Shown in pieces: positions 44,618-60,696 of a stretch of 64,000 nt of DNA. This DNA is from Candidatus Bathyarchaeia archaeon. Its GTDB lineage: Archaea; Thermoproteota; Bathyarchaeia; Bathyarchaeales; Bathycorpusculaceae. Each line of letters starts with the position of its first letter. Within the stretch, counting starts at the first letter, position 1. The stretch spans positions 384,001-448,000 of the forward strand of contig JBEKSS010000001.1 in NCBI GenBank assembly GCA_049516875.1. The letters run 5' to 3'. Both the position numbers and the translations under genes were made by a program. A model generated the notes under the pieces. The model had not been told where the DNA came from. It was given only the letters and a program-made list of their open reading frames with translations, and ran no database searches.

Positions 44618-44774
44618 ATTTTATATAATTTGCGTTAGCACGGAAGCATATCAAAACATATCCACGCATCGGCACAGGCTATCCAGCATTGAGGACAGGT
44701 TATCACAGAAGGATCATTCTAGCTCACCACTAGCGCCATGAGCACTACGAGATAATGATTACAACCGAACGATT

Positions 44775-44782
44775 TTTAATAA
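44775..44782 (+). promoter_or_regulatory. TATA box of the predicted C/D sRNA
   Basis: TTAATAA-type box roughly 25 nt upstream of the sRNA terminal stem. Confidence 0.55.
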
Positions 44783-44803
44783 GCCTAAGCATCTTTTAGA
44801 ATC

Positions 44804-44860
44804 GCCGATGACGAGCTCTTTTTGTCTGAAAAAGATGATGTACTCTAGGGTATCTGAGGC
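44804..44860 (+). ncRNA. Box C/D guide sRNA
   Basis: GCC stem, C box ATGACGA 44808-44814, 11-nt guide, D' CTGA 44826-44829, C' ATGATGT 44835-44841, 12-nt guide, D CTGA 44854-44857, GGC stem. Confidence 0.8.
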
Positions 44861-44861
44861 A
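44843..44861 (+). repeat. attL core (19 bp)
   Basis: CTCTAGGGTATCTGAGGCA, identical to 60406-60424 and 52 nt upstream of the integrase. Confidence 0.95.
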
Positions 44862-44913
44862 ATTCTTTATAATATGTGAGGTATTTTATTCTTTTTCGCA
44901 GGAGAGAAGGCTT

Positions 44914-46167
44914 ATGGATTGGCGGCGCAGGTACGATTACGGCGTCTCGCGCCTGGAAGTCGACGCGTTCATCCAGGAGAACACGTGCGTTCAGCGGTTC
45001 TTGAAGAAGTATGCTGAGTCAACCAGGTACAATTTCAGCCGGTACCTCTGCATGTTCTTCAAGTGGCTACGAATTCGAAAAGGCCTGGAGCTGAGCCCAA
45101 GCGAGTTTCTGCAGATGCTCAGCGAAAAGCGTCAGGCTCATTCAGTTGAGGACCGGTGCTGGGGCAAAGACCTTGTCCTGGAATACACCCGTGACAATCC
45201 AGACATGAAAGGCAAGTCGCACAGTCTCCTGTACGGCGCCATGTTCAAGAGCGTGAACCTGTTCTGCAAGGCCCACGAAGTGGAGCTGGCCATCGCCCGC
45301 GGCGCGTATGGCGAGAAGAAAAAGAGGAAGTACCGGCCTGCCCCTTACACTGTCTCCTTAGCCAAGAAAGTCTTAGGCGTAGTCAACCAACGGGACCGGG
45401 CGATCTGCATGCTCGGTCTCCAGACTGGGCAAAGCATCCAGCAGGTGCTCGAGGAGATTAACGATCAGTACGAATACATCGTCCGGGAAATCTCTTCGGG
45501 AAAGCAAAGGATCCGCTTTGACTTCCCGGACGGGCGGAAGGGCAACGGTTTCAAGTATTACACGTTTTGCTCAGTTGACGCTATAACTGAGGTCCAGAAG
45601 TGGCTGCCTATCCGTAAGAAGTGGCTTGGGGACCGAAAGAGCCCGTACCTCTTCATTCAGCGGGATGGGTCGAAGATGACGCCTCAGGCTTGGCGGAGTC
45701 CGTTCCGGGAGCGCCTTGAACGTCATGGAGTTTACAAGGGTCCTTACTCCGTCGTTTTTCACATGTTCAGGAAAATCTTTGAGTCTGAGGCCAGTCCTCC
45801 AGATAGAGGCATTAGCAAAGATTATGCGCGGTTCATGATGGGCCACTCGGTTGATGAGGAAGAGCTTGATCAGTTGGATATTCCAGGGGGCACGTATGAT
45901 GAGGCGCCGTTTACGCATCCGGACGCAGTTGAAAAAGAATACGCGAAGCTGGAGCCCTACATCAACATCTACACCGGCAAAGCAGCCCACACGGAAGAAG
46001 GGGAAATCGGCGACATGCGGCGGCAGCTGAGCAGTCTAACTTCCCAAGTCGGCCAGCTGACGAGTACGTTGGAACTAATGCGAGTACCATTCCCAACGAA
46101 GGAAGCGATAGAGGGGCCAATAGCAGCTATGAAGAAAATAGCGCCAGAAAATGTCACCAAAAAATAG
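44914..46167 (+). CDS. Tyrosine recombinase/integrase (intact)
   Basis: RDRAI..LGLQTG, RKGN, FHMFRK, MMGH, downstream Tyr (GGTYD). Confidence 0.9.
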   Translation: MDWRRRYDYGVSRLEVDAFIQENTCVQRFLKKYAESTRYNFSRYLCMFFKWLRIRKGLELSPSEFLQMLSEKRQAHSVEDRCWGKDLVLEYTRDNPDMKGKSHSLLYGAMFKSVNLFCKAHEVELAIARGAYGEKKKRKYRPAPYTVSLAKKVLGVVNQRDRAICMLGLQTGQSIQQVLEEINDQYEYIVREISSGKQRIRFDFPDGRKGNGFKYYTFCSVDAITEVQKWLPIRKKWLGDRKSPYLFIQRDGSKMTPQAWRSPFRERLERHGVYKGPYSVVFHMFRKIFESEASPPDRGISKDYARFMMGHSVDEEELDQLDIPGGTYDEAPFTHPDAVEKEYAKLEPYINIYTGKAAHTEEGEIGDMRRQLSSLTSQVGQLTSTLELMRVPFPTKEAIEGPIAAMKKIAPENVTKK

Positions 46168-46374
46168 CGACTGTGGAAAGACAGGGCAAACTTGAACGAA
46201 AAAGGCCTACCTTAGCAGCGCAGAAACAGCCTCTTCCTCATAGTATATTACAGAAACTCAATGCATGTTGAAGAGCCATGGTAGAGACGGAGCAAAAGTG
46301 AAGCAGTTAGCCCAGCCTTGGCAACGCTGAAATGCCTAGTCATCCATTAACAAATATGGTGGCGCAATCCGCTA

Positions 46375-47427
46375 TTATTCCACACTTCGTTTTTGGCGGT
46401 AGCGTTTCCTATATCCATGGAACTTCTCCAAGATAGAAAAAACCCCATAGGAAAACAAAGCACCGAGGCCAAACAGAAAAACGCCAAACCAGTTCAGATC
46501 ATGCAATGCAAGTATACTCACATAGAAAAACAAAGCAGCGAAGCAGCCGATGAACATTCCTCCAATCATCGTAGCAACTGTCTTCTTTGCGCTTTCTGTT
46601 TTGGTATACTTTTCTTCCTCAAACTCAAGTTCCATTCCAAGATCTTTCGGAGTTATCCCTTGTTTCAAAATTCTCTCTGCAATCTTTGAACCTTCAGCCG
46701 TCAGAGAGTAACTGGCTTTGTGGGGTTCACGCCAGGCCCGGAAGATTCTTCCTCCAGTGATTCTCGCAATTCTGGTCTTGAATTTATCCATCTTTGTAAT
46801 CGGCTCAGGGCTAGTCTTCACAAACTCGGGGTAACGTTTCAATATCGTTTGAATCTCACGTGGCGATATTTTTCCTCGCAGAGACGAGTAAAGTTCCTCG
46901 GTGGTCGCCGTTTGTTCCGCGGGGGTACGAATTCCTAAAAGGAGAGAAGTGAAGAAGTAGAAGTAGCCGAATTTTTCAATGAATGACTTAAGATCTTCTT
47001 TGTTCATACCTTCGATGCTTCTTAGAATGTCTTCCGGATCTGGTTGCATTTCTGCCAAAGGATTATCTGATTTGTAAGCCCTCAAGAATTTGCCAACGAG
47101 TTGTGCATGCGATGTTTCCCTATAGCATTTGTAATTAGTCTTGAACTTTCCCAGGGCTGCTCTTTTTCCTTCAGGAGTCAGCGGGCTTCTCACGCCAACG
47201 TAGCTCGCTAACTTTAGCCCTTCGAGTTCCCTAAGAGTATCATCAACGAGACCTATGCTGATCTGTTGTCCGACTGGCCCTTGATTTCGAAGCTTCTGCT
47301 CAACGTCGATCGACGTCGCTTCTTTTTTGTCAATCAAAACGCCGAAGATTGCATATTTCTTTTCGTTTCTCAGGAGTCTGAAAGATCTGTACAACATCTC
47401 ATTCACACTTAATGACATATGAACCAT
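46375..47427 (-). CDS. Winged-helix-like protein with two C-terminal TM helices (cargo)
   Basis: LTPEGK and YSLTAEGSK wing-like motifs; hydrophobic C-terminus. Confidence 0.65.
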   Translation of the reverse strand: MVHMSLSVNEMLYRSFRLLRNEKKYAIFGVLIDKKEATSIDVEQKLRNQGPVGQQISIGLVDDTLRELEGLKLASYVGVRSPLTPEGKRAALGKFKTNYKCYRETSHAQLVGKFLRAYKSDNPLAEMQPDPEDILRSIEGMNKEDLKSFIEKFGYFYFFTSLLLGIRTPAEQTATTEELYSSLRGKISPREIQTILKRYPEFVKTSPEPITKMDKFKTRIARITGGRIFRAWREPHKASYSLTAEGSKIAERILKQGITPKDLGMELEFEEEKYTKTESAKKTVATMIGGMFIGCFAALFFYVSILALHDLNWFGVFLFGLGALFSYGVFSILEKFHGYRKRYRQKRSVE

Positions 47428-47541
47428 TACCTCATACGCATATTCTCAAAAAGTCAGAATCACTATTTCTTGATTCTGAGTTTCTCAGAATTAAAGATTT
47501 CCCTGATTTGGCCCTAGGTACTACTTGTTGTCCGACCGAAA

Positions 47542-48327
47542 ATGAGGAAAACGATTGAAACGGAAAGGAAAGCAGATGCAGGGCTCGAATTAGACGAAGT
47601 GAACCAGGAGAGCATTGACGAACGGCTTCAAGAGATTGAGAAAAAACTGACGAGAATCGAGAAGGAATCGCGTGTTGGTGTAGACGATCAGCTTTTTTAC
47701 GGATTGGTTCTCTCTTTTCTCTTGTTTTTCTTGGCAGTTCCCCTGCCTGATGTTACAAACTTCCTCTTGGCCAGTTTCAAGTTTGATCTTAGTACCGCGT
47801 CAAACGTTGCTCTAGGTTTGAAGAATACTTTTGTCGCGCTCTTACTTCTGTCCGTTGTATCCAGGTACTATGCCGCAGTGAAGCCAGCTAAGGGATATCG
47901 TCTGTGGTCGATTGAATTCCTTTTTGTAGCGTTCGAGCTCTTTGTGTGGAATCTAACATTTGCCATAGCAAACCCACTTGTCCCACCACCAGGATACACT
48001 ATAGAAAACAGTTTCGTTTCTCTCTCAGCCGCATATGTTGTGCTCTTAGCAATCTTTTTGCTGATAGGAAAGTTTGTCGAGAGCAGAATCCTTGGATTCT
48101 ACGCAAAGAAAGAGCTCATTTCAAAGAAACATGCCCAACCGATTGCATCAGCCTTTTTCATATCTTTCTTAGGAACAGGAGGCCTTGTACTTCTGCTACA
48201 AGAAGTGGCCTTTTTTGATGCGAACACTCTGTTCAGTGCCTTAGATCTAAACATCGCTCTTTCACTTTCGTTCGCCTTCTGTTTTTCCGTTTACCTTATC
48301 TTCTTGCGAAAGAAGAAAGTCTTATGA
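47542..48327 (+). CDS. Multi-pass membrane protein (cargo)
   Basis: Charged coiled-coil N-terminus followed by about 6 TM segments. Confidence 0.7.
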   Translation: MRKTIETERKADAGLELDEVNQESIDERLQEIEKKLTRIEKESRVGVDDQLFYGLVLSFLLFFLAVPLPDVTNFLLASFKFDLSTASNVALGLKNTFVALLLLSVVSRYYAAVKPAKGYRLWSIEFLFVAFELFVWNLTFAIANPLVPPPGYTIENSFVSLSAAYVVLLAIFLLIGKFVESRILGFYAKKELISKKHAQPIASAFFISFLGTGGLVLLLQEVAFFDANTLFSALDLNIALSLSFAFCFSVYLIFLRKKKVL

Positions 48328-48398
48328 AGATGGTTGCAATGCGACTTGGACCAAACGATCCCCTGCCATCCAAGTGTTAATGGGTATTAACAGATATT

Positions 48399-49184
48399 TC
48401 ATGGCTTGTCTGCTTCTTGGAGCAGATCCTCTTTTGTGTAAAGCTTGGAAGAAAGTGCCTTGTCAAGTGCTTTCCTGATATATTCACCGGCGATTCGTAC
48501 GTCGACTAAGGGTATCTCTTTTCTTCCGCCGTGGACGATGGCCCCTCTCAAATCATAGAACTTACCTATTTGTTTGGCCATTTCCTCTCTCTTCAATTCG
48601 TCAGGTTCTATGAAACTGGAGAGTCTACGTTTGAGATTGCTCTTGTAATTCCCCCCGGTTGAAAAGAGTGCTTCGGCGGCAATCGCCAAGTCGATAACAA
48701 CCTCTACTTGCATCCTACTACTGGCTTGCACAGCATTGTAGTAGTAGCGAAGAGCCAACCCAAGCTGTTCATCCATTATTCTTTGCATGTCTTTTTCCAG
48801 GTGAAGAAAGCGTTCCTTTGTCAAGAGGATTGATTCACTGAGTATGGATCCCATATCTTCATCGAGGACTGTGACTTTCCTGTAGTTAGTGAAAGAAACT
48901 CTTCTTCTCCCAAGCTCGTCCAATGCAGATATAGTTGTACCAATTCCGGAACGATAGGTGGCAGGTCGACCGGTCAATAGGGCATTCAATAAGAGAAAGA
49001 AATCCACGTATGAGCTGGCTGTGATGAAATAATCGGGGGCATCCTCGACACCAAAGTATGCAATGGCAGCTGACTCATTCTCGCCAAATACTTGTTCTAA
49101 GACAAATCTCTCGCAGACCTGAAGCTGACCTATTGTTGATGGCAGCAAGCTCCCTCTAATGAGAAATTCTACCTGTTTTAGCAT
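48399..49184 (-). CDS. ApeA-like HEPN domain protein
   Basis: LAIAAEALF...LKRRLSSFI...FYDLRGAIVHG (RxxxxH). Confidence 0.8.
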   Translation of the reverse strand: MLKQVEFLIRGSLLPSTIGQLQVCERFVLEQVFGENESAAIAYFGVEDAPDYFITASSYVDFFLLLNALLTGRPATYRSGIGTTISALDELGRRRVSFTNYRKVTVLDEDMGSILSESILLTKERFLHLEKDMQRIMDEQLGLALRYYYNAVQASSRMQVEVVIDLAIAAEALFSTGGNYKSNLKRRLSSFIEPDELKREEMAKQIGKFYDLRGAIVHGGRKEIPLVDVRIAGEYIRKALDKALSSKLYTKEDLLQEADKP

Positions 49185-49334
49185 AGTATTTCAAAATATA
49201 TGATTGCCTATTTGAGCCTCATGCTTCAGGCAAGCCATGGACGCTACCTATGAGGTACGAAGCCCCAGCGCGCGCGTCAGAAAGTCTATTGCGCGCAACA
49301 GACTTTTCTTGAAAATGGACTCGTTTCAGACCTG

Positions 49335-50357
49335 CTACGGTGGCGATTTTTGGAAAACCAGCCCGCCAGTCAAACCCATGCAAGCCCACTCCAGACCGAT
49401 GGGTTGGTCTGCCGCTACGAAGTAGTCTCCATACATGGTGATTCCTCCTGCCTCCGCAGCATTCAGATATGCGGCGAGTCTAACGTCGTGGACGCTGGTG
49501 TCTCTCTGAGTTGTGTTCAACCCAGTTTTCTCTACTTTTAGGACTCCATCGACCCACAGCCTGATTATGCCCGCCGAAACATGCAGATAATCATAGACTT
49601 CCACACAGTACCAAGTGTTCGCCACAGGGTTGCTGGGGCTAGACTCTAAATAATTGACTCCGGCACCTTCCCAGTGGCTAAGGCCCCAGTAGAGGTTAGC
49701 GCCGCTTTTTTCTATTATCGGAAGTAGGTCCCAGGTTCCTGCACCGGCACCTACTAAGCCCCAGCCGGGACCGAACATATGAGGAGTCCCATCTGCAGTG
49801 GGCATTGCAGACAGCTTGATGTATGCCCTGACGTAGATTTCTGGCGCGACGGGTGAACCAAGGTCCTTGTATGCGCTGCCTCCATCGTTGAGGGCCGTTA
49901 GACCTGTTATTTTCATGTTGTAGATTCCATGATGGGGGTTTGCGTTCTCAACCGTTGTCACTCCGCTGTTCCAGTTATGGGTTCCCGTCCATGCGTTGAA
50001 GTTGCCGGACTCGAAACCGTCTGCGAAGACCACTGTGAAGAATTGTTTCAAGTAGGTTCGTTGCTGCGCTGAGATTCGTGGAAATACGAATTTGTGAACG
50101 TATTCTTCTAAGGCTTTCTTATCCTTTAGAACTCTAGGCGGAACACGAAGAGGAACCGTGAACCGTTCAAGACAGTAAGGACACATATGGCTGGCGCCAG
50201 ATACTTTTCTTCTGCATCTTGGGCAGATGTGGTCCCACATCGGCAGTCCGGAGCAGGAGTCACAACGCCAACAATCGGACCGCATCAACTTAACGGACCG
50301 CATCAACTTAACATAGGCGACACAATACAGTTTCAGCAGCCAATATGGCAGTCTCAA
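49335..50357 (-). CDS. Putative adhesin/spike: zinc-finger N-terminus plus lectin/LamG-like beta-sandwich
   Basis: CPRC...CPYC; FADGFESGNFNAWT...NTWYCVEV...IRLWVDG. Confidence 0.7.
   Translation of the reverse strand: MRLPYWLLKLYCVAYVKLMRSVKLMRSDCWRCDSCSGLPMWDHICPRCRRKVSGASHMCPYCLERFTVPLRVPPRVLKDKKALEEYVHKFVFPRISAQQRTYLKQFFTVVFADGFESGNFNAWTGTHNWNSGVTTVENANPHHGIYNMKITGLTALNDGGSAYKDLGSPVAPEIYVRAYIKLSAMPTADGTPHMFGPGWGLVGAGAGTWDLLPIIEKSGANLYWGLSHWEGAGVNYLESSPSNPVANTWYCVEVYDYLHVSAGIIRLWVDGVLKVEKTGLNTTQRDTSVHDVRLAAYLNAAEAGGITMYGDYFVAADQPIGLEWACMGLTGGLVFQKSPP
50276..50311. repeat. 18-bp perfect tandem duplication (VKLMRS x2)
   Basis: CGGACCGCATCAACTTAA twice. Confidence 0.95.
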
Positions 50358-50378
50358 TTCAGGACCTCCATTTCTCGA

Positions 50379-50603
50379 CTACCACACTGCATTGAGGCTT
50401 CGCTGAGCATCTTCAAAAAGCAGCAAAGCAGACTTCAAGTAAGACTGCGCCTGCTCAAGCCTTCTTCTCTCGTCCGAAGAAAGAGGCAACGAGCCGATCA
50501 TGGAACACAGCTTCCTCGACATCTCGAGGACGTCCGCAACGTAGTCGCCGGGATATCTGTAGCCAAGAAGAGGCTTATTTCTGAGCCACTCTCTAAAATT
50601 CAT
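50379..50603 (-). CDS. Small hypothetical protein
   Basis: In the co-oriented minus-strand operon. Confidence 0.6.
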   Translation of the reverse strand: MNFREWLRNKPLLGYRYPGDYVADVLEMSRKLCSMIGSLPLSSDERRRLEQAQSYLKSALLLFEDAQRSLNAVW

Positions 50604-50625
50604 ACGCGATGCCCCCGCGAGCTAC

Positions 50626-51108
50626 TTAAAAAGATATTCCTACCTCTCCTAAAACTTTGATGTACCCTGATGTTGGTCCCGGAGCGCCTGTCCATTCGAG
50701 ACTGTGCCACATTATTCCTGGTGTCTGCAGACTGAAAGGAATGTTTACCGCTTCTTCGTATCGAGTGGCACTGGCTTTTGCGGGTGCACTTTGAAAGAGC
50801 AGTTGCATGATCAAGTTTAAGCCTGCATCACCGCCTGAAGCAAAAGTAGGGTTGTCTTGCCAAAGCCGTAAAGTGTAGGTTACTGGGTTTGTGGGTTTCA
50901 TGTAGTACGTTATGTCACGTATGTTGCCCGTCCGCAAAGTAGGATGACTGATTTGAGTAGAGGGGACGTATTGACCAAACCAGCGAGTCGGCGGAGTATT
51001 GATGTCTTGACTTGTGTCGAAAAGGTGCCAGTCCCAACCGGTAACAGGATTATACGACCTAAACCAGAAAAGGTCAACCGGTCGTTTGGTGCCGATACTC
51101 AATGCCAT
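50626..51108 (-). CDS. Beta-rich hypothetical protein, putative virion component
   Basis: T/P/W-rich beta-strand pattern; abuts the upstream gene. Confidence 0.6.
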   Translation of the reverse strand: MALSIGTKRPVDLFWFRSYNPVTGWDWHLFDTSQDINTPPTRWFGQYVPSTQISHPTLRTGNIRDITYYMKPTNPVTYTLRLWQDNPTFASGGDAGLNLIMQLLFQSAPAKASATRYEEAVNIPFSLQTPGIMWHSLEWTGAPGPTSGYIKVLGEVGISF

Positions 51109-51636
51109 TCAACCAACTCCTACAGCATCCAAGTACAGAAGACCATTAAGAACTACGGCTGTCACGAAGACGGCGCTGACATTCAGCGGATACGTATATG
51201 GCGTGTTGGCCAATAGGTAATGTCGAACCCGAGTGGCACTGTTGAATTTGACCCAGCAGTTTTGGTTTGCCATCAACGATAACTGTGTTGCCGTGAACAA
51301 AGGTACTGTTGGGTCTGCCTGATGTGCATTGTATCCGATATCATACTCAGTTTCTATAAGCGTAAAAGGAACTTGCGCGTAGTCATCATAAATGAGCGAG
51401 GGAGATGTGGTAGGATTTGATTCCGCTTCCTCAACCGCCCCGCAGTTTCCGTCGACTACGGTCACGCTTTTATTTGCACGGATATCATTCAATGCATGAA
51501 CTCGATAAACACCGGGACTATTCTTTTCCACGTCGTATGGAAAATAGAAAATGAAGATTTCGCCCCAGTCACCTACCGCAATTGCTATCGCAGCTATGCC
51601 GATGCTCCCCACGGGGGGTTTTTGTTTGTAGCTCAT
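51109..51636 (-). CDS. Beta-rich hypothetical protein, putative jelly-roll-like virion component
   Basis: Start MSYKQK after GAGGA; LSLMANQNCWVKFN...SAVFVTAV...GLLYL. Confidence 0.6.
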   Translation of the reverse strand: MSYKQKPPVGSIGIAAIAIAVGDWGEIFIFYFPYDVEKNSPGVYRVHALNDIRANKSVTVVDGNCGAVEEAESNPTTSPSLIYDDYAQVPFTLIETEYDIGYNAHQADPTVPLFTATQLSLMANQNCWVKFNSATRVRHYLLANTPYTYPLNVSAVFVTAVVLNGLLYLDAVGVG

Positions 51637-51675
51637 TGCTTTTCCTCTCGTTCGCTCAAGTGCGCGCACGCGCAC

Positions 51676-52188
51676 CTAAACGGTGAAATCAAACGGATAA
51701 GCTTTTAAGTCTCTTTCAGCCAAATCTGCTGCTGTTGGTTCTTTTTTGCTTCTTGCGCCCTGAAAATCAGGTTTTTGCACGACGTTTCTGATTTCGCCAT
51801 CCCAATGGTCTGAAGTAGTCTCGCCTCCTCTGAAACCGACGATCGCTTTTTGGTCCGTGGTGGCATTATAATTCAAAGCGCGGCCATGCGAAGTTAGCGA
51901 CGGTCTCGAGGGATCCGGAACCCATCGCTCCAAACTGGCGTCTCCATCGACTGATTTCAACTCATTTTGCAAAGGCTGAGGCTGCGTGGCGACTCCTTTT
52001 ACCTGAGGAACAGAATAACTTGCCCAGTCCAACGCAAAAGCCTCATTTGGATTGGCACCAAAAAGTGCAACTGGGCGTGGCTTTTGAGGTTCCAGCCTAG
52101 AAACTGACTGGCCTCTGCTCTGCACTCGGCTAATAGGAGCCTGGAGCCTGGCGCGGATCCGCGCTCGGACAATCTCTATCAATGACAT
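51676..52188 (-). CDS. Hypothetical low-complexity protein ending YPFDFTV
   Basis: GGTGA RBS; basic N-terminus. Confidence 0.65.
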   Translation of the reverse strand: MSLIEIVRARIRARLQAPISRVQSRGQSVSRLEPQKPRPVALFGANPNEAFALDWASYSVPQVKGVATQPQPLQNELKSVDGDASLERWVPDPSRPSLTSHGRALNYNATTDQKAIVGFRGGETTSDHWDGEIRNVVQKPDFQGARSKKEPTAADLAERDLKAYPFDFTV

Positions 52189-52198
52189 TCAAATCACC

Positions 52199-52426
52199 CT
52201 AAAAGGTGAAGTCCCATGGAAGGCGGGCGGTCTGCGGGGGTCTATACGTAAAGTCAAATTTTTCGGTGCCGCCAGGAATTCTAAATTCCATGTCGTAGGC
52301 TTCTTTTTGGCTTGCAGGCACGCGCTGGCTAAAATCGCAAATCTCGTGGTAGCCTGAAGGCATCCGCAGGTTTTTGACTGGGGGCTCGCTGGGAACGCTG
52401 ACCCACTTCCCGTTTACGTTCGCCAT
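52199..52426 (-). CDS. Small hypothetical protein ending LPWDFTF (first gene of the operon)
   Basis: AGGTGA RBS and TTTAAG TATA-like box upstream. Confidence 0.65.
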   Translation of the reverse strand: MANVNGKWVSVPSEPPVKNLRMPSGYHEICDFSQRVPASQKEAYDMEFRIPGGTEKFDFTYRPPQTARLPWDFTF

Positions 52427-52604
52427 GTGGCTCAAAATCTTTCACCTAATCATATTAGCGCGGTTTTGCTACTTAAACTTTGTTTTTTAGGCTCCGTCAA
52501 CGATTTGGACGGCGGGGCAAATCGAATTTTGTCAAAGAACCTTTTGAAACAGTCTGATTTAGGAATACGCCGTATTTGTTAATGGTTTTTGGCAAAAACT
52601 TAAC

Positions 52605-53174
52605 TTGAACGTATTGTTAGTATCTTGTGAGGCGGAATGGGTGGGTAGACACAAAGTCCTCAATAAAGTCGGTGAGTTGCTGGTCAGTTTCATTGACGAG
52701 AACGGTATAAACCACGAATTAATCTCTATTTCGTATCAACAAACGTGCGCGCGCAGAAAAATCGATGCCTCTTTACTGTTTGTTCCCCCAGAGAACACAT
52801 GGAACTCGTGCGCGCGCCCGAAAATCCGAAAAATGGTTATGGGAAAACATGATACGCCCTTTGACAAGGTAATTGGTGAACTCGCCGCCTTCTACAATGA
52901 GAGGGGAAAGTGTATGATTGCTGTGAAGATGAAGCTTGGCGACGGTCGATTGGAAACATGGTTGAATCCGCAAATTCTGGAAAAACTGGGGGAGATAAAA
53001 GCAGCGAGGGACCGAGTCAGCGCGATCGCTAATAACGGCGGGACAGGGCTCAATTTCTTTTCGAAAACCCTGAGAATGCTGGAGGCGGACGCCATTGTCG
53101 ACTTTGGTGAAAGGCCAGAACGCTTGCAAATCGAGTTTGACAACTTTTCTAAGCCTTTTCCTTTGACCTGGTAG
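52605..53174 (+). CDS. Hypothetical protein (true start likely near 52833)
   Basis: The C-terminal 110 aa look protein-like; the 5' part spans GCGCGC motifs. Confidence 0.5.
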   Translation: MNVLLVSCEAEWVGRHKVLNKVGELLVSFIDENGINHELISISYQQTCARRKIDASLLFVPPENTWNSCARPKIRKMVMGKHDTPFDKVIGELAAFYNERGKCMIAVKMKLGDGRLETWLNPQILEKLGEIKAARDRVSAIANNGGTGLNFFSKTLRMLEADAIVDFGERPERLQIEFDNFSKPFPLTW

Positions 53175-53196
53175 TTCCTGAGCTTCTTTTCACTTT

Positions 53197-53688
53197 TCAG
53201 CCTTCTTCTGGCGATTCTGAAGGGTAGTTGAGGCTAAGCATTACCCGGGTTCTCGAGTCCTTCACAACTTCCTTGAGTTTCTTGGCGAAATCCGTTGTTA
53301 GAGCCTTGACCGCGCTCTCTTTCTGTTCTGTCAGTCCGTGCACGGCAACAGTTCCATTTGTTTCTGGCGCTACGTTCTTGAAAAGAAGTATGTCCAAATC
53401 AGCAAAGGAAAAAGAGGTTTTCAATTGTTGTTCCTGTTCCAGAGCCTTTTTATTCAAGACTCCTGGTGGTGTAAGAAAGTATCGCCGACGTTTGCCGACC
53501 AACATGAAGGTCGCCAGTCCCTGGTCCAGGATGGTTGGCAGGTAACAGGCCAAGGTCTTCTTGCTCATTTTTGCTTCTTTTGACAAGTCGTTGAAGCCTA
53601 ATGTTCTATCTTGTTCAGTCGCTTTTGCCAAGGCACCTAATACTCGCAGCGTTGTATCCTGTTGTCTCCATTTTCCCCATTTAGTCAT
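53197..53688 (-). CDS. Winged-helix repressor-like regulator
   Basis: GFNDLSKEAKMSKKTLACYL...RRRYFLTPPG; divergent from the early operon. Confidence 0.8.
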   Translation of the reverse strand: MTKWGKWRQQDTTLRVLGALAKATEQDRTLGFNDLSKEAKMSKKTLACYLPTILDQGLATFMLVGKRRRYFLTPPGVLNKKALEQEQQLKTSFSFADLDILLFKNVAPETNGTVAVHGLTEQKESAVKALTTDFAKKLKEVVKDSRTRVMLSLNYPSESPEEG

Positions 53689-53791
53689 TCTTATCTCCCT
53701 GCATGAATTGGTTTACTTATTTACAATTTAGTTCCTTATGTAAACCGTTTATATAAGCCTTTGCGTAAAGTCTTGACTAAGGTCGTGAAGT
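53689..53791. promoter_or_regulatory. Divergent promoter/operator (genetic switch)
   Basis: GGTTTAC 53710-53716 / GTAAACC 53740-53746 and TTTATATAA 53748-53756. Confidence 0.6.
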
Positions 53792-54022
53792 ATGTCCGAA
53801 AACGAACTTGACGATAAACATGTGATTCTGAAAAGATACAAGCTACGCGTCGCAGGCGCTCAGGGTGCTACAACGGAGATCAGCTTGCCTCCCGACGCAC
53901 TTGCCCGCGAGGCTCGAAGGCTTGGCATAGACGAGAGAGAAGCGGCCAAGAAGCTTATCGGAGTGTGGAAATTCAATTCGTTTCACGGTTTGCATTTAGA
54001 TTTTGAAGTGAAGCAAGGATGA
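53792..54022 (+). CDS. AbrB/SpoVT-like small DNA-binding protein
   Basis: KLRVAG...TTEISLPPD...RRLGI. Confidence 0.6.
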   Translation: MSENELDDKHVILKRYKLRVAGAQGATTEISLPPDALAREARRLGIDEREAAKKLIGVWKFNSFHGLHLDFEVKQG

Positions 54023-54285
54023 TTAAAACAGAAAAAGAGTCCGAGAGCCCTGCAAGGCTCGCGGAGAAAAGCTACGACTTCAAAAGAACATTGTCTTTTC
54101 TAACTGATAGACTTTGCGGTGTCAAGGTTCTTCATGATATAGATTTTCTAAGTTGTGGCAATTGCGTGAGTTGGGCCGGTCGATGCTTGCGAGGAGCCCG
54201 ATACAAGATTGCAGCCGATAGCCCTTGCAGCGAGTTTATTCCAAAAAACCAAGCGACTTTCTCAGCTTTGAGGGTGTCCAGATGA
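54019..54285 (+). CDS. Small Cys-containing hypothetical protein
   Basis: CGNC...C...CSEF; ATGA-coupled to neighbours. Confidence 0.6.
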   Translation: MIKTEKESESPARLAEKSYDFKRTLSFLTDRLCGVKVLHDIDFLSCGNCVSWAGRCLRGARYKIAADSPCSEFIPKNQATFSALRVSR

Positions 54286-54764
54286 GCCAGATTTCTCTGG
54301 ACCAGGCTGCCGTCTACACCAAGCTGTGCGAACTTGACGCTTTGAAGAAACTTGTTGAAGAGCAACGCGCAACGATTGAGGCTTTGAAGGAACGGATCAT
54401 CAAACTGGAAGCCGATGCTGGCGTCACAGAAACAGGTCTGAGCGCAATTGCCGGTGCACTGGAGCTTCGCGGGATCCTCAAAAATGGCGAAGCGGTTGAA
54501 GCTTCCGAAAAAGAGCCCATGGTAGCCGTGAAAGAAGAAACCTTCACATGCTTGACGTTCGAGGACCAGCGGGGTTCGAAGCTCGGGGAGTTTTCAGTCG
54601 CATACAGAGAGAATAATGTCATCGATAAGTGGACGTCAGCCTACAACGTTCTGCAGCAGAGCAATGCTACAATAAAGAGCCGTTACCACGGACCAGGGTA
54701 CGTTCATTCTTACTGGTTGTATGCTGAAAATAGAATCTACCGCCAAAGATTGAAGGGGAGCTGA
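54282..54764 (+). CDS. Coiled-coil hypothetical protein
   Basis: LKKLVEEQRATIEALKERIIKLE; ATGA overlap. Confidence 0.7.
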   Translation: MSQISLDQAAVYTKLCELDALKKLVEEQRATIEALKERIIKLEADAGVTETGLSAIAGALELRGILKNGEAVEASEKEPMVAVKEETFTCLTFEDQRGSKLGEFSVAYRENNVIDKWTSAYNVLQQSNATIKSRYHGPGYVHSYWLYAENRIYRQRLKGS

Positions 54765-54838
54765 CAAAAACGGGCAAACACATTGTCAAAGAATTCACGT
54801 TCGAAAGGCCTAACAAAGAGAATCGACAACTGGAAATC

Positions 54839-57625
54839 GTGAGGGTTGAGGTTGGCCTGGAGAAGGTCGCGCGCGGTTACGAGTTCTATGTTGGAGAGAA
54901 GCGCGTAAAGGTGGGCAGTGTCGAAGCAGATGATTTAGACGCGAAAGCTGTGGCTGAGCAGCTTGGGCTTCCTGTGCCTCCGGATCCTGTAGGCTCTCTT
55001 CATCAAGAAGGGAGCAGGACGATATCAAAAGCAGAGTCATTCGTGTATAAGTTGGCTCTGATATATCGGCTCAGTCCCGAGAAAAAGCTCACCATGCCGG
55101 ACATTACTTGTTCGAGTATTGACGGTCGGAAAGGCGTTTCGATAGATCCAGGCGTTTTTCTGTTGGTTGAGAAGGACAAGTCATGGCGCCTCCAGCTGAT
55201 TGACACTGAAGAGAAATTTGATAGTAGTGAGAATCGTTCGCTCACAGCGGGGTTTCATGTTGGCAGTCTGGACGAATTGAAGAAGGAGGCCGTGTTGAAA
55301 GAAGCGTTGAAACTCTGTTTCAAAACGCAGCTTGTTCCCCTTATCGTTGCCAGGATTGTTGAAGTGATTCAGGCTGAGCCTCAAGAAACGTGGACGGTAT
55401 GCGAAAAAGAGCAGCCAGAGGAAGAAGGGGGACAGGTGAATATTCCCGTTGAACTGCCTACGAGCGAGGCGGTGAGCGACGTTTTCGCCTACCAAGGTGA
55501 CAGAAAATTTAACAGTCGAATCCAGATTAAAAGTTTCGGTTTTCCTCAGAGCAGGTTTCTTGAGCTGGAGTTCTCCTGCAATCGAAGCCGCGAAGACCTG
55601 TGCGCTATATGCACGTTCGAAGGCTACAAGATGAGTCTGAAAGAAAACTTTGATGCTTCAGCCTTCGCCACGTATTTTGACAGCGACAGTCCAAAGGACG
55701 CGTGGAAGATTCTGAAGCAGAACGGGACGGTAGCGGGCTGCGATAAGATTTCAGTTAAAGGTGAAAATGAAACCGCCGTAACCCAAGCCATAGTTAGCGA
55801 TCGACGTGGAAACGAGGCTAAAGCATGGTTTGTCTACGACCATGAAAAATGTGACCTTCGCACATCCCCGAACTGGATATACAGTCAAGGATGGCTTTGC
55901 CGGGGACTGAAGGGACGAATAGGCGTACTGGTAACGGAGTTTCAAGCGGAAAGCGAGGTTATGATGCCTAAGGCAGAAACCGTTGAAGCCTCCAAAGAGT
56001 ATCTGCGTTCAATCAGGACTGAAGACGAAGCCACAGTCTGGAAGGTCGCCAGGGCTCTGCATAAGAAGTCCAACTTGAAAGGATTAGAGGCGACACGCGG
56101 GTTTGTCTCAGACTTGCTCTTCATAGGAGCTCCTGTCTGGACAAAGACTCCGGAAGGCCCTCAAATAATCGGCATGACAAGCCTGGAGTGTGGAGAATCA
56201 ACAACAGCGAAAAGCCAGCGAGAACGAGAAGTCGTTGATTGGCTGAAAGCAGGCAAATATGAGAGTGGAAGAAAAACATCTGCAGGCTTGGCTGCCGGCG
56301 CTGAAAAGATTGAGGGAATAGGCTGGGTTATGCGGAAAGGCCTCTTGCCCTCAGCCGACCTTTCATTCATAATTCTGGACAACATGTTCCCGCACGCGCT
56401 CGACGAACACATTGAAAGTAGACGTAACGGAATCATAGAGCTTTCAACGATCAAGTCATGTGAACTGTGGGGACGGACCAGGCTTAAACTGTTAAGCAAT
56501 CCTGCTATGCCCTTCGACCAGCACCTGCACAAGTGCGTAGCCCTCAAAGTCTACGATTCCAAATTCATAGCACGCTTCACTTTCGTAACCTTCACCTACG
56601 GAGAGAAACCTGACGTCAGATACGATCCGAAGATTGAAGAGTTGTCTGAGAAAGACCAAGCAGTCCTCAACGCAGCGTGGAACGTGCTGAGATGGAACCT
56701 CAGCCAAGAAGTGACTTACACGGTTCCAGTGAAACTATGGCCTAAAATAATGGAGTACAGCAAGCAGCTGGAGCTCACCTTCGGAAACGAGGAGATCCCA
56801 CTTTTCCTCAGGGCAAACCCGCACAAGGTAGCGACGTTAGCCTATTGTTTCGCACTCTTTGAGGGAACCGAACCCACCGAAAGGCACGTTGAGCAAGCCA
56901 ACCAATGGCTGACAGAATGCGGCGTCGACATGGAAATGGACGAATTCACCGAAGAATGGAAAAAAGAACACACACTTTCTGAGGAAGAGTACTCAGGTCT
57001 GAAGCTGGCGATTGAGGCTCAGACATCTTTCGATATGAAAGAGCACGGCGGGGAACTTAGAGACTCGGAGCTCTTCAAGTTTTTCGAATACATAGCGAGA
57101 CGTGGACAGGCTCAAATGGAAGAGATAGCTGCAGCAGCTAGTCTTTCTGATCAGACTGTGAAAAGACGGGCTAAAGAGATGAAGGGGTTGGGTCTGATAC
57201 AGAGTTCGATCAGGGGCTATTTTTTCACTCCAAAGGGCGTCCGCTTCTACAAACGATGGTTACGTGGCCTCAATGGCCCTAATGGCCTCACTTTTAAGGG
57301 TCACAAGCCTTTTGGCGGCGGAAAAGTGCCTGAGACCCCTAAAACCGAGGCCAATGAGGCCATTAAGGCCACGACTGATTTTCTATGGACAAAGGTGCCG
57401 GCAGCTGAGAAGTGCGAGCTATGCGGCCAGTTTGCTGTTGAGTTTGAAATCAACGATACCCGGCAACGGCAGACCGTGAGACGCTGTGAGCCCTGTTTCC
57501 ACAAGATTCGCAGTGAGTACAGAAACGCGGTCTGGAAGGAGACATTGGAACAAGAGCCTAAGAAGGATGATGGATTAGTCAGGGGCTCGGTTGCGGTTCT
57601 CAACGGCACATCTGGGAGGCCATGA
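54839..57625 (+). CDS. Divergent MCM-like AAA+ helicase/replication protein with C-terminal wHTH and zinc ribbon
   Basis: CGESTTAKSQ (Walker A-like), GRKTSAGLAAG, WVMRKGLLPSAD, IILDN, LLSNP, ARF; possible CTG start at 54761. Confidence 0.8.
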   Translation: MRVEVGLEKVARGYEFYVGEKRVKVGSVEADDLDAKAVAEQLGLPVPPDPVGSLHQEGSRTISKAESFVYKLALIYRLSPEKKLTMPDITCSSIDGRKGVSIDPGVFLLVEKDKSWRLQLIDTEEKFDSSENRSLTAGFHVGSLDELKKEAVLKEALKLCFKTQLVPLIVARIVEVIQAEPQETWTVCEKEQPEEEGGQVNIPVELPTSEAVSDVFAYQGDRKFNSRIQIKSFGFPQSRFLELEFSCNRSREDLCAICTFEGYKMSLKENFDASAFATYFDSDSPKDAWKILKQNGTVAGCDKISVKGENETAVTQAIVSDRRGNEAKAWFVYDHEKCDLRTSPNWIYSQGWLCRGLKGRIGVLVTEFQAESEVMMPKAETVEASKEYLRSIRTEDEATVWKVARALHKKSNLKGLEATRGFVSDLLFIGAPVWTKTPEGPQIIGMTSLECGESTTAKSQREREVVDWLKAGKYESGRKTSAGLAAGAEKIEGIGWVMRKGLLPSADLSFIILDNMFPHALDEHIESRRNGIIELSTIKSCELWGRTRLKLLSNPAMPFDQHLHKCVALKVYDSKFIARFTFVTFTYGEKPDVRYDPKIEELSEKDQAVLNAAWNVLRWNLSQEVTYTVPVKLWPKIMEYSKQLELTFGNEEIPLFLRANPHKVATLAYCFALFEGTEPTERHVEQANQWLTECGVDMEMDEFTEEWKKEHTLSEEEYSGLKLAIEAQTSFDMKEHGGELRDSELFKFFEYIARRGQAQMEEIAAAASLSDQTVKRRAKEMKGLGLIQSSIRGYFFTPKGVRFYKRWLRGLNGPNGLTFKGHKPFGGGKVPETPKTEANEAIKATTDFLWTKVPAAEKCELCGQFAVEFEINDTRQRQTVRRCEPCFHKIRSEYRNAVWKETLEQEPKKDDGLVRGSVAVLNGTSGRP
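57265..57371. repeat. Two inverted sets of three 9-bp iteron-like repeats
   Basis: TGGCCTCAA TGGCCCTAA TGGCCTCAC (57265-57291) versus CCGAGGCCA ATGAGGCCA TTAAGGCCA (57345-57371). Confidence 0.8.
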
Positions 57626-57707
57626 CTGTGGAAACGCAAAGACCCCTCCCTAAACAACCTCAGACATTCTTCTCGTGTTTTGAGTCCATTCGAGGTGACA
57701 TACAAGA

Positions 57708-58004
57708 ATGAAGAAATCCAAACTAGAACATGAACCCTTGGAACAGGGGTATGGAAAAGGCGCAGAGGAGCGAAAAATCGTCCCCTCGTCTGTCTTACGA
57801 CGGAAGAAGCAGAAGGTCGAGAAACTATGGTTGATTCAATACTTCGAGGTGCGCAGACATTCCAGAACTTTGTATCTGCCGTTGGATCCGACAACTGTGC
57901 GAATTCACGATATCGAACGCGGCGACATTGTCAAAGCTGTTCTTCTGGCACTTCGCAAAGCGCCACGTCCAGACGAGCCCATAAAGGACCCAGGAGAGCT
58001 CTAA
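57708..58004 (+). CDS. AbrB-like protein
   Basis: RTLYLPLDPTTVRIHDIERGDIVKAVL. Confidence 0.7.
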   Translation: MKKSKLEHEPLEQGYGKGAEERKIVPSSVLRRKKQKVEKLWLIQYFEVRRHSRTLYLPLDPTTVRIHDIERGDIVKAVLLALRKAPRPDEPIKDPGEL

Positions 58005-58006
58005 AC

Positions 58007-58162
58007 ATGAGTGAAAATGCCATAGTTCAGCCTCTCGGAACAAGTAAGAGACTGTCAGTTCCACTGAAGCGCGAGCGGGACTTTGACCCTGAAAAGCAGC
58101 GTGAGCTCAGAATTCGATGTGAGCAGTTAGCCAAAGAAATTCTTGCGAGGAAGAAGAAATGA
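58007..58162 (+). CDS. Small hypothetical protein
   Basis: MSENAIVQPLG...; GGAG upstream; ATGA overlap with the next gene. Confidence 0.5.
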   Translation: MSENAIVQPLGTSKRLSVPLKRERDFDPEKQRELRIRCEQLAKEILARKKK

Positions 58163-58599
58163 CGACTCAACAAGAGACTGGCCATCTTTCCGTCCTTGTT
58201 CAACTGGTCCATGATGACGAGACGCGCCTTGGCTACGCTACGAAAGAACATTTGCTCGACATTTGCCAATTTATAGTGGACTCACAGGGGAAGTTCGGAC
58301 GCATAGAGTATTCTGAGGCCATAAAGACACTCGCACATTATCACCTGGCAAAGCTCGCAAACAACCACAGCTTTCGCAGCACGTGCCGGCGTCTCATCGA
58401 GGCTGAACGTATGAAGCCTTACATTGGCCGCTGTAGGCGCTGTGGTAGGACCATCTCAAACCCGATTAGCCTAGCGACAGGTTACGGTTGTGTGTGCCGA
58501 AGAAAACTCGCGGTCCCGAAACCAGGAGCTGAGCAGGACAAGGTTGAAACCCTCACTTACAAGGAAGCCGCGAAAATTCACAAAAAGTTGAGGTGGTGA
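58159..58599 (+). CDS. DUF6011-like zinc-finger protein
   Basis: CRRCGRTISNPISLATGYGCVC. Confidence 0.75.
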   Translation: MTTQQETGHLSVLVQLVHDDETRLGYATKEHLLDICQFIVDSQGKFGRIEYSEAIKTLAHYHLAKLANNHSFRSTCRRLIEAERMKPYIGRCRRCGRTISNPISLATGYGCVCRRKLAVPKPGAEQDKVETLTYKEAAKIHKKLRW

Positions 58600-58898
58600 A
58601 AATGACTAGACTATCATACTCTAGCATACAAGTGTTCTACAGACGCGCAAAAAGAAATTTCAAGGCGAAGTGCGGTCACAACATCAAAAAAGGCCAATGG
58701 TATCTAGTTGTAAACGATTATGCAATGTACCAATTGTATCACTGGAGCAAATGCTTAGACTGTGTGCTACAACAAAATCCACGCACCCTGGCACGATGCC
58801 TGAAAATAGAGAACGCTGGAACATGGCTTATGGTATCGGCACCTAAGCCGTTGGTGGTCCTGAAACTATTCTCGCTAGTTGGAGGTGAAAAGAAGTGA
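58593..58898 (+). CDS. Small zinc-binding hypothetical protein
   Basis: CGHNIKKGQWY...HWSKCLDC. Confidence 0.65.
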   Translation: MVKMTRLSYSSIQVFYRRAKRNFKAKCGHNIKKGQWYLVVNDYAMYQLYHWSKCLDCVLQQNPRTLARCLKIENAGTWLMVSAPKPLVVLKLFSLVGGEKK

Positions 58899-59362
58899 CT
58901 GAACCATTAGAAATTAAACCGTACAAAAGGCAGAAGATTCATCCGCCATCAGAAAGTACAGCAATATTCGTTAAAGATTTCTTGTTGAAGCATGGTAAGG
59001 GCTATTCATATGGAATGTGGAAAGCTTGGTCTGATCATCTTCACAGCCTCGGGTTCAAAGAACCGAAAATAGAATCGTTCAGAAAATACCTGTGGATTCT
59101 AACCAAACTGGGTTTAATTAGAAAAACCAAGGCGCCATCTTACAAGATACAAAGCCGATTCCTACGCGAATACTATGAGCTGAACCCAAAACAGATAGGC
59201 AATGAAAAAGCATGGGCAAACCCTAGTTTCACTCTTTACGGAGACAAAGCCCGGCTTGGACGTCGCCGATACCGAAAGCGGATCCTCGGTTTGCCTCCCA
59301 AAAAAGTTGGTCGACCGAAGACCAGGTGGGTACAGTCAAATGAGTCTTCAGAGCAATGTTGA
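58895..59362 (+). CDS. Winged-helix DNA-binding protein
   Basis: SFRKYLWILTKLGLIRK...REYYEL; basic tail GRPK. Confidence 0.7.
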   Translation: MTEPLEIKPYKRQKIHPPSESTAIFVKDFLLKHGKGYSYGMWKAWSDHLHSLGFKEPKIESFRKYLWILTKLGLIRKTKAPSYKIQSRFLREYYELNPKQIGNEKAWANPSFTLYGDKARLGRRRYRKRILGLPPKKVGRPKTRWVQSNESSEQC

Positions 59363-59555
59363 GAATCTTAACTTAGCTTCCTATAGGAGTTTGTTACTCT
59401 CTTGAGAGGGCTCTTAACCGTCTTGCCTACTGTAGGCTTTAACAGACTTGAGGATTGAAACACAAAGCCGTCAAGGTGTTACCACGTTCTACGCTCTTAA
59501 CTGGCATGGAAAAAAGATGTGTTACCCACAAGCAGACATGAAGTTAAGATAAAGC

Positions 59556-59828
59556 TTGACTGGCAGGTGTGAGCCATACATGAGACACAATGAATCCAAA
59601 AGAAAGGTGTTAGAGGCCATCTCAGACCTAAAAGAACCAGCCCCGCCAGGTATCGTCGCTGAATGGCTTTCCCTCGAATACAATGTCTCTTTAACTGACC
59701 GGGCTTGTTCCATGGAGTGTTTACGTTTAATGAGACAAGGACTATTGCGTCGTCACCAAGGGCTCTACACTATTTCAGAAAAAGGCGAGCAAAGGCTTCA
59801 GTGGCTTCGTACTAACTGTCAAAGTTAG
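59556..59828 (+). CDS. Small winged-helix protein
   Basis: CLRLMRQGLLRR...YTISEKGEQRL. Confidence 0.7.
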   Translation: MTGRCEPYMRHNESKRKVLEAISDLKEPAPPGIVAEWLSLEYNVSLTDRACSMECLRLMRQGLLRRHQGLYTISEKGEQRLQWLRTNCQS

Positions 59829-59919
59829 CACTACATCTACTGGCTCTTATTCAACGGCATACTCAACCCCACTAGAACAGACTAGGCGCTGCCAGACCAG
59901 AAATTTTATGAAAAACCGA

Positions 59920-60295
59920 GTTGCCACGTGGCAAGTGTCCAACCGTTTGTCAAAAATGAGAAAATTCGCTGACGGTCAGTCAATAATGAAATTGCCGAAA
60001 AAGACTGTAACACGCCCACGTTTCTTGAAAAAATTTTATTACACCTTGCGGTTCCGAGTCCCCTCAGAAAATTCGAAAAAGGGAGGGGATTGAGGGATAT
60101 GGAACATTCGCGTTACAATGTGCGCAATTCATTAATCCTCATTAACAAATATTTAATGAGATGAATTTTTATATTTTCTCCGAAAATTGTGACTCGCCCC
60201 ACGTCATCATCAAAATCGAATTTCAGACATCCATGCTGAGCGTATCTGAATTGACCGATTTGAGCAGGACGGTTAGGCACTTGCCACATGGCAAC
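59920..60295. repeat. Inverted repeats with palindromic cores flanking an AT-rich segment (candidate origin)
   Basis: 59920-59946 versus the reverse complement of 60269-60295 is 24/27; cores TTGCCACGTGGCAA and TTGCCACATGGCAA. Confidence 0.8.
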
Positions 60296-60405
60296 CGCCC
60301 CACCGTTCAAAAATTCAACGATTTTTCTGGAGACGCCCTTCAACCCCACATCTCTTTCAGAAAAACCCCTCATACATCCCTTACTACCATGAAAAACAAC
60401 AGGGC

Positions 60406-60424
60406 CTCTAGGGTATCTGAGGCA
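60406..60424 (+). repeat. attR core (19 bp)
   Basis: CTCTAGGGTATCTGAGGCA = D guide, D box and 3' stem of the sRNA. Confidence 0.95.
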
Positions 60425-60456
60425 GAAAAAGATTCCAACACCTCAAGAAGCGCGCG

Positions 60457-60696
60457 TCATGAAATGACTTTGCTCTTAATGAGATACCATATGAGTACTA
60501 GGCCTATTATTAGCGAAACAAATCCGCCGGCGAAAGAAAAGAAGATGCCTCGCTTGAGAAAACTAGATGCTATATAAACCACGTAGGGCGCACCGAAAGT
60601 GAACAGTCCTGCGAGGATGATCAATAGTAATTTCCAATACTTTGAGTTCATCATTCCAGTTCGGGTCTCTTTAGTTTCTTTAGCCATGCATTTCAC
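60457..60696 (-). CDS. Small two-TM membrane protein
   Basis: Two hydrophobic helices; downstream of the PAC2 gene. Confidence 0.7.
   Translation of the reverse strand: MKCMAKETKETRTGMMNSKYWKLLLIILAGLFTFGAPYVVYIASSFLKRGIFFSFAGGFVSLIIGLVLIWYLIKSKVIS

Follow-up and report, generated by a model that had tools for sequence, protein, structure and literature searches.

The window analysed here, a whole stretch of 64,000 nucleotides (nt; G000:C1:384001-448000), comes from the metagenome-assembled genome (MAG) of a Bathyarchaeia archaeon, hereafter G000 (2.43 Mb in 20 contigs, about 97% complete). It carries the 57-nt gene of a box C/D-type small RNA (sRNA), the 3' end of which coincides with the left border of a 15.5-kb element that begins with an integrase gene. 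We consider it very probable, from comparison with related genomes, viruses and metagenomes, that this element has integrated site-specifically into the 3' end of the host sRNA gene, by the same logic as elements that integrate into tRNA genes. The borders of the element, the empty sites, the conservation of the RNA, the attachment site that related viruses carry and the second sRNA at which the pattern recurs were all observed directly. The comparison sets were 201 genomes of the host family, 99 of them of high quality, 301 genomes of the order, viral contigs from IMG/VR and contigs from metagenome runs X3, X7, X8 and X14; G001-G004 are four genomes of the same genus as G000. All genomes compared are MAGs, and counts over related genomes are not statistically independent. 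The features at the two borders, where attL and attR denote the left and right attachment sites, are listed below; the stems, boxes and guides are read from the sequence, with pairing to 23S rRNA as a further basis for the D guide.

44763-44781, + strand: promoter-like block AACCGAACGATTTTTAATA, resembling a transcription factor B recognition element (BRE) and TATA box, ending 23 nt 5' of GCC
44804-44860, + strand: 57-nt gene of the box C/D-type sRNA, as restored at attL
44804-44806, + strand: 5' stem, GCC
44807-44814, + strand: C box, GATGACGA (AUGACGA at 44808-44814)
44815-44825, + strand: D' guide, 11 nt
44826-44829, + strand: D' box, CTGA, followed by an AAAAG spacer and the C' box
44835-44841, + strand: C' box, ATGATGT
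44842-44853, + strand: D guide, ACUCUAGGGUAU, 12 nt
44854-44857, + strand: D box, CTGA
44858-44860, + strand: 3' stem, GGC
44843-44861, + strand: attL core, 19 bp, CTCTAGGGTATCTGAGGCA, an exact direct repeat
44862-60405, no strand assigned: integrated element, absent from empty sites, 15,563 bp including one core copy
60406-60424, + strand: attR core, 19 bp, an exact repeat; the displaced 3' fragment of the sRNA, lacking promoter, C, D' and C' boxes

Archaeal box C/D sRNAs have a C box of consensus RUGAUGA and a D box of sequence CUGA, and the original prediction, made from the DNA letters, had recognized a C-D'-C'-D layout at this place, which is present as described. The TATA box that it placed upstream likewise holds up, and since related loci have an identical or similar A/T block at about this distance (23 nt), position and conservation together suggest that the AACCGAACGATTTTTAATA block is the promoter from which the sRNA is presumably expressed. 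No open reading frame (ORF) of at least 60 amino acids (aa) covers the site and ARAGORN reports no tRNA or tmRNA in the window; the 'tRNAs' returned when introns were allowed (of about 1.5 kb) are spurious, and guide matches inside them were discounted. A covariance-model check with Rfam gave a divided answer, in that 12 of the 14 weak matches in the 601 nt searched are C/D families at the same place and on the same strand, the best being snoPyro_CD (RF00095) over the whole length of the model (E 0.0019), at 26.8 bits against a gathering score of 45. Genes for the protein partners of such an RNA, those of the box C/D ribonucleoprotein (RNP), are present in G000, namely fibrillarin (321 bits) and Nop5 (256 bits), which are adjacent, and two L7Ae-family proteins (102 and 70 bits). 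The element-side sequence had also been proposed to lengthen the terminal stem, and the eight of nine pairs between AGAATCGCC and GGCAATTCT do exist in the sequence; beyond GCC/GGC, however, five of six pairs in G000 become two or three of six in the 8 other loci compared (2 of them occupied sites), and because of this loss we read the extended stem as chance.

The attachment core, CTCTAGGGTATCTGAGGCA, is an exact repeat, as first noticed, found just twice in the 2.43-Mb assembly, each time on the + strand. It takes in the last 11 D-guide bases (of 12), continues through the D box and 3' stem and ends one base beyond them, which bears out the idea that the element carries guide sequence. At attL the full sRNA stands restored beside the integrase gene and at attR only the 3' fragment is left, again as anticipated, with the right flank (GAAAAAGATTCC) continuing after attR as it does in the empty sites of G002 and G003. 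Empty sites, sought in relatives as the original prediction had suggested, were found in four genomes of the same genus and in three metagenome runs, with the boxes conserved at the locus. For G002, the left flank aligns to C5:48196-49151 and the right flank to C5:49134-50127, an overlap of 18 bp; the flanks meet likewise in G001, G003 and G004, where the sRNA gene is uninterrupted and the 15,563 bp are absent. In three runs from as many studies (X7, X8 and X14), contigs pass directly from 44842 to 60406, the 19 letters at the junction being compatible with both sides; they leave out the same 15,563 bp and are at least 99% identical to the flanks, and X7 also contains pieces of the element. 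Run X3 holds the whole element in pieces, its contigs breaking at the core; one host-left contig extends 11 letters into the host-right flank, and as a bridge across the junction was counted only under a 31-letter rule, no X3 contig qualifies as one. A likeness between the attR side and the sRNA upstream of the core (35 nt, 83% identity) was discarded as chance because it is absent from other attachment-site arms.

The interrupted gene is widespread. BLAST searches with the flanks recovered the locus in 23 relatives, reaching other families of the order, with the boxes in register, and a pattern search with the 3' half of the sRNA (C' box, D guide, D box and GGC) matched 164 of the 201 family genomes and 90 of the 99 high-quality ones, nearly always as one copy per genome. 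The complete C/D'/C'/D architecture is found in 53 of 54 distinct loci, the remaining locus being masked by N, and the parts that lay outside the search pattern are kept throughout (5' GCC in 53/53, the C box as RATGA[AC]GA in 53/53 and the D' box CTGA in 53/53). The C' box reads [AG]TGATG[ACT] across loci, and the D box, itself part of the search pattern, is C[TGC]GA in 53/53, the variants CGGA and CCGA being present in unoccupied hosts. Over these loci there are 39 distinct D' guides and 8 distinct D guides, such that the former vary freely and the latter are constrained. To judge from these alignments, the sRNA is a conserved host gene with full C/D'/C'/D architecture. A separate pattern search found no ortholog in G040, G030, G034, G029 or G032. 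As separate observations, G356 has two full-length matches to the sRNA pattern, one per strand, which could reflect a duplication or a mixed bin, and at locus L007 (G004:C1:171646-172670) the sRNA is separated from the upstream gene by about 1 kb more DNA than in G000, G002 and G003.

Relatives of the integrase occur in 16 of the 301 genomes of the order, G000 included, and their attachment sites, another check that had been proposed, lead back to the same RNA. The two closest stand immediately downstream of the orthologous sRNA, in G058 (79% identical) at 54 bp and in G248 (73%) at 51 bp, and in both genomes the second core copy (attR) is found on a different contig, with non-sRNA sequence before it. 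Of 13 IMG/VR contigs that encode integrase relatives, 5 show a non-sRNA left arm, the core CTCTAGGGTATC[T/C]GAGGC and then the integrase gene (int), the arrangement of an element attachment site (attP), and this viral core is the same 18-bp core. One of the viruses, G405, is a complete tailed virus, which has 37,157 bp and a terminal repeat of 127 bp, contains the core once and encodes a portal protein; since it has only int and part of one ORF in common with the element, the integration module appears to travel between different kinds of elements. Another viral contig, G408 (L168; IMG/VR, 32,557 bp), starts with an attP that has CTGA and ends with the same arm (126 identical bases) followed by a core with CCGA, and the 5 letters at its very end differ from the int side and resemble the sequence that follows the sRNA in G021; the assembly thus seems to run from the free form of the virus into its integrated form, with attP at the start and attR at the end. 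Set apart from these, G341 carries core copies in opposite orientation 1.5 Mb apart (C3:69916-69931, minus strand, and C3:1593026-1593041, plus strand), its intact sRNA having CGGA and the other copy CTGA, which could be the product of an attachment-site-mediated inversion or of an element integrated elsewhere.

These sites also bear on the suggestion that the element could swap the guide, of which one part stands. In G058 the D box is CTGA at attL and CGGA at attR, and as in G058 and G408 the int-side copy and attR differ at this base, the crossover would lie 5' of it, that is, 5' of core position 13 and within the first 12 bp of the core; the placement depends on one base in these two relatives. 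With a crossover at that position the rebuilt sRNA would end in element DNA, which would make up its D box and 3' stem. The guide bases themselves are identical in all nine element-borne cores (the window, G058, G248 and L165-L170), so that no exchange of them was seen. The notion that the element has been spreading its CUCUAGGG guide through the family was considered and rejected: genus g17 carries CCCUGG, CCCUAG and CUCUAG and G343 carries CUCUGG, and since all four pair with the 23S site through Watson-Crick or wobble pairs, stepwise neutral mutation would explain the variants.

A search of both guides against host rRNA and tRNA had been proposed, and it yielded a probable target for the D guide. 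This guide pairs over 10 contiguous bp (one of them G-U) with 23S UUACCCUAGGGAUAACAGG (G000:C17:70-88, minus strand; site B), a duplex that includes the base opposite the fifth guide nucleotide (N+5). Site B adjoins GGGAUAACAGG in the 23S rRNA, and we take the segment to lie beside the peptidyl-transferase region. The site is assembled in 49 family genomes, 41 of which also have a known guide (8 were dropped, 5 of them having no sRNA match and 3 lying outside the rows listed). Across these 41, guide position 7 and its 23S partner form A/U in 15, A/C in 1, G/U in 10 and G/C in 15, so that 40 of 41 are paired (Fisher p = 0.0008 for the association, in related genomes that are not independent), and the other variable guide base (C or U) is opposite an invariant G. 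Most likely, then, on the strength of this complementarity, the sRNA guides 2'-O-methylation of a C in 23S UUAC[C]CUAGGGAUAACAGG. Exact and one-mismatch complements of both guides in G000 matched no stable RNA, and the exact 11-mer complement, searched for in five relatives, matched the sRNA gene itself only. 16S rRNA was not found in G000, G002, G003, G004 or G017, and that of G012, the sole 16S tested, gave no convincing guide match. The 23S gene of G000 on C17 is cut by the contig end and its 16S is unassembled; in G012, the sole relative with both assembled, the 16S (1.372 Mb) and 23S (0.545 Mb) on C1 are unlinked.

The integrase (417 aa) resembles phrog_1 integrases in sequence (E 2.3e-5), and its AlphaFold2 (AF2) model, with a mean predicted local distance difference test score (pLDDT) of 75 and a predicted template modelling score (pTM) of 0.53, adopts what is predicted to be the two-domain tyrosine-recombinase fold. 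Foldseek against the Protein Data Bank (PDB) returned 7 matches at E <=0.001, all to XerA, IntI or Tn1549 Int, the best being XerA (4a8e, E 2.9e-5), with Lambda Int, Cre and SSV1 Int as the next matches; in a phmmer search of PDB sequences no recombinase was matched. H283 (HxxR), R286, H311 and Y328 are invariant in 9 homologs, and we take H283/R286, H311 and Y328 to be the catalytic residues from the usual order of the motifs. The enzyme is presumably active.

Taken together, these data suggest a sequence of events in which a circular form of the element would carry an 18-19-bp attP, made up of the last 11 D-guide bases, the D box and the 3' stem, just upstream of int, and this attP would recombine with the identical chromosomal site (attB) via the tyrosine integrase. 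The resulting attL would be an intact sRNA gene whose promoter, C box, D' guide, D' box and C' box come from the host and whose 3' end, from the crossover on, comes from the element, while attR would keep a promoterless 3' fragment.

Several observations weigh against this reading, and some of them speak for another explanation. If the 19-bp repeats were a target-site duplication or chance, and the interval an ordinary strain-specific island with no site-specific recombinase, a circular junction of the exact element need not be found, and none was seen in runs X3, X7, X8 and X14. The divergence of the integrase would also fit, its match to PF00589 (E 1.3e-4, 22.3 bits) being below the cut-off of 27.1. 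We nevertheless regard this explanation as scarcely credible, given repeats that are exact and unique to the two borders, a deletion form that is precise in three studies, an arrangement common to three genomes and the presence of the same core immediately upstream of homologous int genes in free viral genomes. That attP has been seen only in relatives sharing little beyond int with the element, that the host flank in G408 amounts to just 5 letters and that the G000 MAG has an estimated contamination of 5.4% are further points against the main reading. Another is that the usual place of the box I Arg (..TG.R..E..) in the integrase reads TGQS, by eye, 8 of the 9 homologs likewise being without Arg there; R138 and R234 are invariant in the homologs and might stand in for it. 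It could also be that integration is real and the target a conserved intergenic motif, or an RNA that resembles C/D sRNAs and is no working guide, which would make this an ordinary intergenic attB. Consistent with that, Rfam scores remain below gathering, at this site and for every family anywhere in the 64-kb window, the C box departs from consensus at position 5 (A or C in place of U, AUGA[A/C]GA), and the D' guides are highly variable and shorter than 12 nt (11 nt in G000, 9-11 in relatives), with no target found for them. Such an interpretation appears very unlikely to us, as it must contend with the retention, in 53 of 54 loci, of four boxes, the spacings, GCC/GGC and a TATA-like block around a freely varying D' guide, with a D guide that can pair with a conserved 23S segment and changes in step with it, with the fibrillarin, Nop5 and L7Ae genes of the host and with the absence over the site of any ORF of at least 60 aa.

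A narrower doubt concerns the target of what is, in all other respects, taken to be a guide RNA in the sense argued here. A second 23S site (site A), in a variable hairpin near position 1290 (GAUACC...), might be the real one, in which case the match to site B would be coincidental or mark an additional target. At site A the 23S rRNA of G030 is complementary without mismatch, over 14 nt, to the family guide GCACCCUGGGGUAU, that of G040 fits the G000-type guide over 11 nt, and family members with the CCCUGGGG guide form 9-11 contiguous bp; the fit at site A is good in many relatives and poor in G000. The site B duplex, for its part, has a U-U mismatch beside the D box besides its G-U pair, and G370 breaks the pairing. 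We favour site B, because it keeps the variable pair in 40 of the 41 genomes whereas the duplex at site A is broken in G000, G004, G021 and G012 by an A-C mismatch two bases from N+5, and neither G030 nor G040 yielded an sRNA ortholog; a real target at site A therefore seems unlikely, if less so than the alternatives above.

That tRNA and tmRNA genes receive integrating elements at their 3' ends is textbook knowledge. The Islander database paper (PMC4383910) deals with genomic islands and proviruses that tyrosine integrases have placed in the 3' part of such genes, and archaeal cases of integration at tRNA genes are described in sections of PMC8371274 and PMC6563490. The element in the window shares with such islands an identity block at the 3' end of a small stable-RNA gene, for which the element supplies a replacement 3' end, an int beside the restored gene and a displaced 3' fragment at the far end; it differs in its target, a 57-nt box C/D-type RNA, and in its short core of 18-19 bp. 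The original prediction had drawn this parallel with tRNA genes, and the conserved gene, the empty sites, the homologous integrases and the viral attP all support a box C/D sRNA gene as the attB. Small non-coding RNA (ncRNA) genes other than tRNA have served as attB elsewhere, as in phage phiEf11, which integrates in ffs (4.5S RNA) (portions of PMC12540744), and ncRNAs make up 13.5% of the RNA targets of delimited proviruses in the main text of PMC13626063; unlike ours, these are bacterial examples with RNAs of other classes. Neither 'snoRNA' nor 'sRNA' occurs in that main text, supplements lying outside its scope, and no C/D sRNA attachment site appears in the text searched of PMC8371274, PMC10848311, PMC13626063, PMC3558965 and PMC6563490. 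The literature searched contained no account of a C/D sRNA gene used as an attachment site, and supplementary tables of such sites could hold one; as far as these searches reach, a C/D methylation-guide RNA gene has not been reported in this role.

Archaeal integrases divide into a non-partitioning type (pNOB8, SNJ2) and the SSV type, as set out in parts of PMC8371274 and PMC5861418. Ours resembles the pNOB8/SNJ2 type in its tyrosine-recombinase fold and in an attP outside the int ORF that leaves the gene whole after integration; unlike SSV-type integrases, whose ORF contains attP and is split, int is whole here (44914-46167), and it is not assigned to the SSV type because 53 bp separate the core, which ends at 44861, from the start codon downstream. 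In sequence the enzyme is more divergent than the PF00589 cut-off of Pfam allows. The RNA, in turn, resembles archaeal C/D sRNAs such as snoPyro_CD (RF00095) and sR41 (RF01126) in its C/D'/C'/D boxes, 12-nt D guide, 3-bp terminal stem, length of about 55-57 nt and rRNA-complementary guide, and is unlike them in its sub-gathering score, AUGA[A/C]GA C box, D' guide of 9-11 nt and, in some relatives, CGGA or CCGA D boxes.

Attachment of this kind is seen in three genomes and five viral contigs, and again at a second sRNA gene. Integrases 43-48% identical to that in the window (in G303, G229, G292, G036 and IMG/VR L172) are located just downstream of another conserved RNA, which starts GGATGATGA and ends ...GACTCGACGGGCGAA-CTGA (also GACGGGCGAA-CTGA), and which we call C/D-like from its sequence. 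Its last 14 nt occur in 130 of the 201 family genomes, with two copies in 9 of them, against 4 for a reversed control, and G000 itself has an unoccupied copy (C11, ~89094-89160, minus strand). In G303 the end of the guide, the D box and 3 nt more form a 17-bp repeat whose copies are 28.1 kb apart, next to an integrase 46% identical; a search limited to 20 kb had shown no repeat of the end of this RNA. Rfam matches to this RNA are weak: a scan of 20 kb gave none at E <=1, and one of 301 nt gave sR2 at 14 bits (E 0.6). No rRNA target was found for it. Other integrase relatives come after the 3' ends of ORFs, judged by eye. In the second RNA (G000:C11; L156; L152 in G303; L153-L155; L172) the guide-like regions are mutually complementary and co-vary, as GAGTC/GACTC at most loci and GAGCT/AGCTC at some. 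The element in G229 contains a DUF3800-X RNA (RF02984; L097 447-517; 60.2 bits, above gathering).

It is conceivable, and we offer it as a tentative idea more doubtful than not, that a virus- or plasmid-like lineage of Bathyarchaeia has specialized on C/D guide-RNA genes, at least two of them, with each integration overwriting the 3' end of a guide RNA. Such elements would alter the D box, and perhaps the guide as well, of an RNA directing methylation next to the peptidyl-transferase region, their host range would be tied to the guide and 23S variant of the host, and some archaeal 'intergenic' attachment sites may then be unannotated sRNA genes. The finding at this locus would add a class of RNA gene to the known landing sites of archaeal viruses and plasmids, and offers a means of locating C/D sRNAs as well as the borders of elements in uncultured archaea. 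A host guide RNA, it seems, can be partly viral in origin, and the short, defined attP/attB pair, from a mesophilic archaeal lineage, could be used in recombination assays. For Thaumarchaeota, 15 of 68 sites are given as 'intergenic' in sections of PMC6563490, and these could be re-examined for sRNA genes.

Inside the element, the genes to which a family, a homolog or a relative could be attached are the following.

44914-46167, + strand: tyrosine-recombinase-type integrase, 417 aa, starting 53 bp after the core
49335-50357, - strand: 340-aa ORF, partly common to virus G405 (tblastx 49953-50246, 44% identity)
54839-57625, + strand: putative replication protein, 928 aa, from the domains of its homologs
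58159-58599, + strand: DUF6011 protein (PF19474), cargo, 28.7 bits against a cut-off of 26.6

The 928-aa protein itself has a weak PHROG helicase match (E 9.6e-4) and no Pfam match; among its 64 homologs, PF09250 (Prim-Pol) is found in 12 and PF08708 (PriCT_1) in 1. Weak Pfam matches (UPF0547 and Polysacc_lyase, both below cut-off) are all that the 340-aa ORF shows, and most cargo ORFs are without any family. A 138-aa ORF at 60161-60577 is probably no gene because it spans attR, and at 50276-50311, within the element, 18 bp (CGGACCGCATCAACTTAA) are exactly duplicated in tandem.
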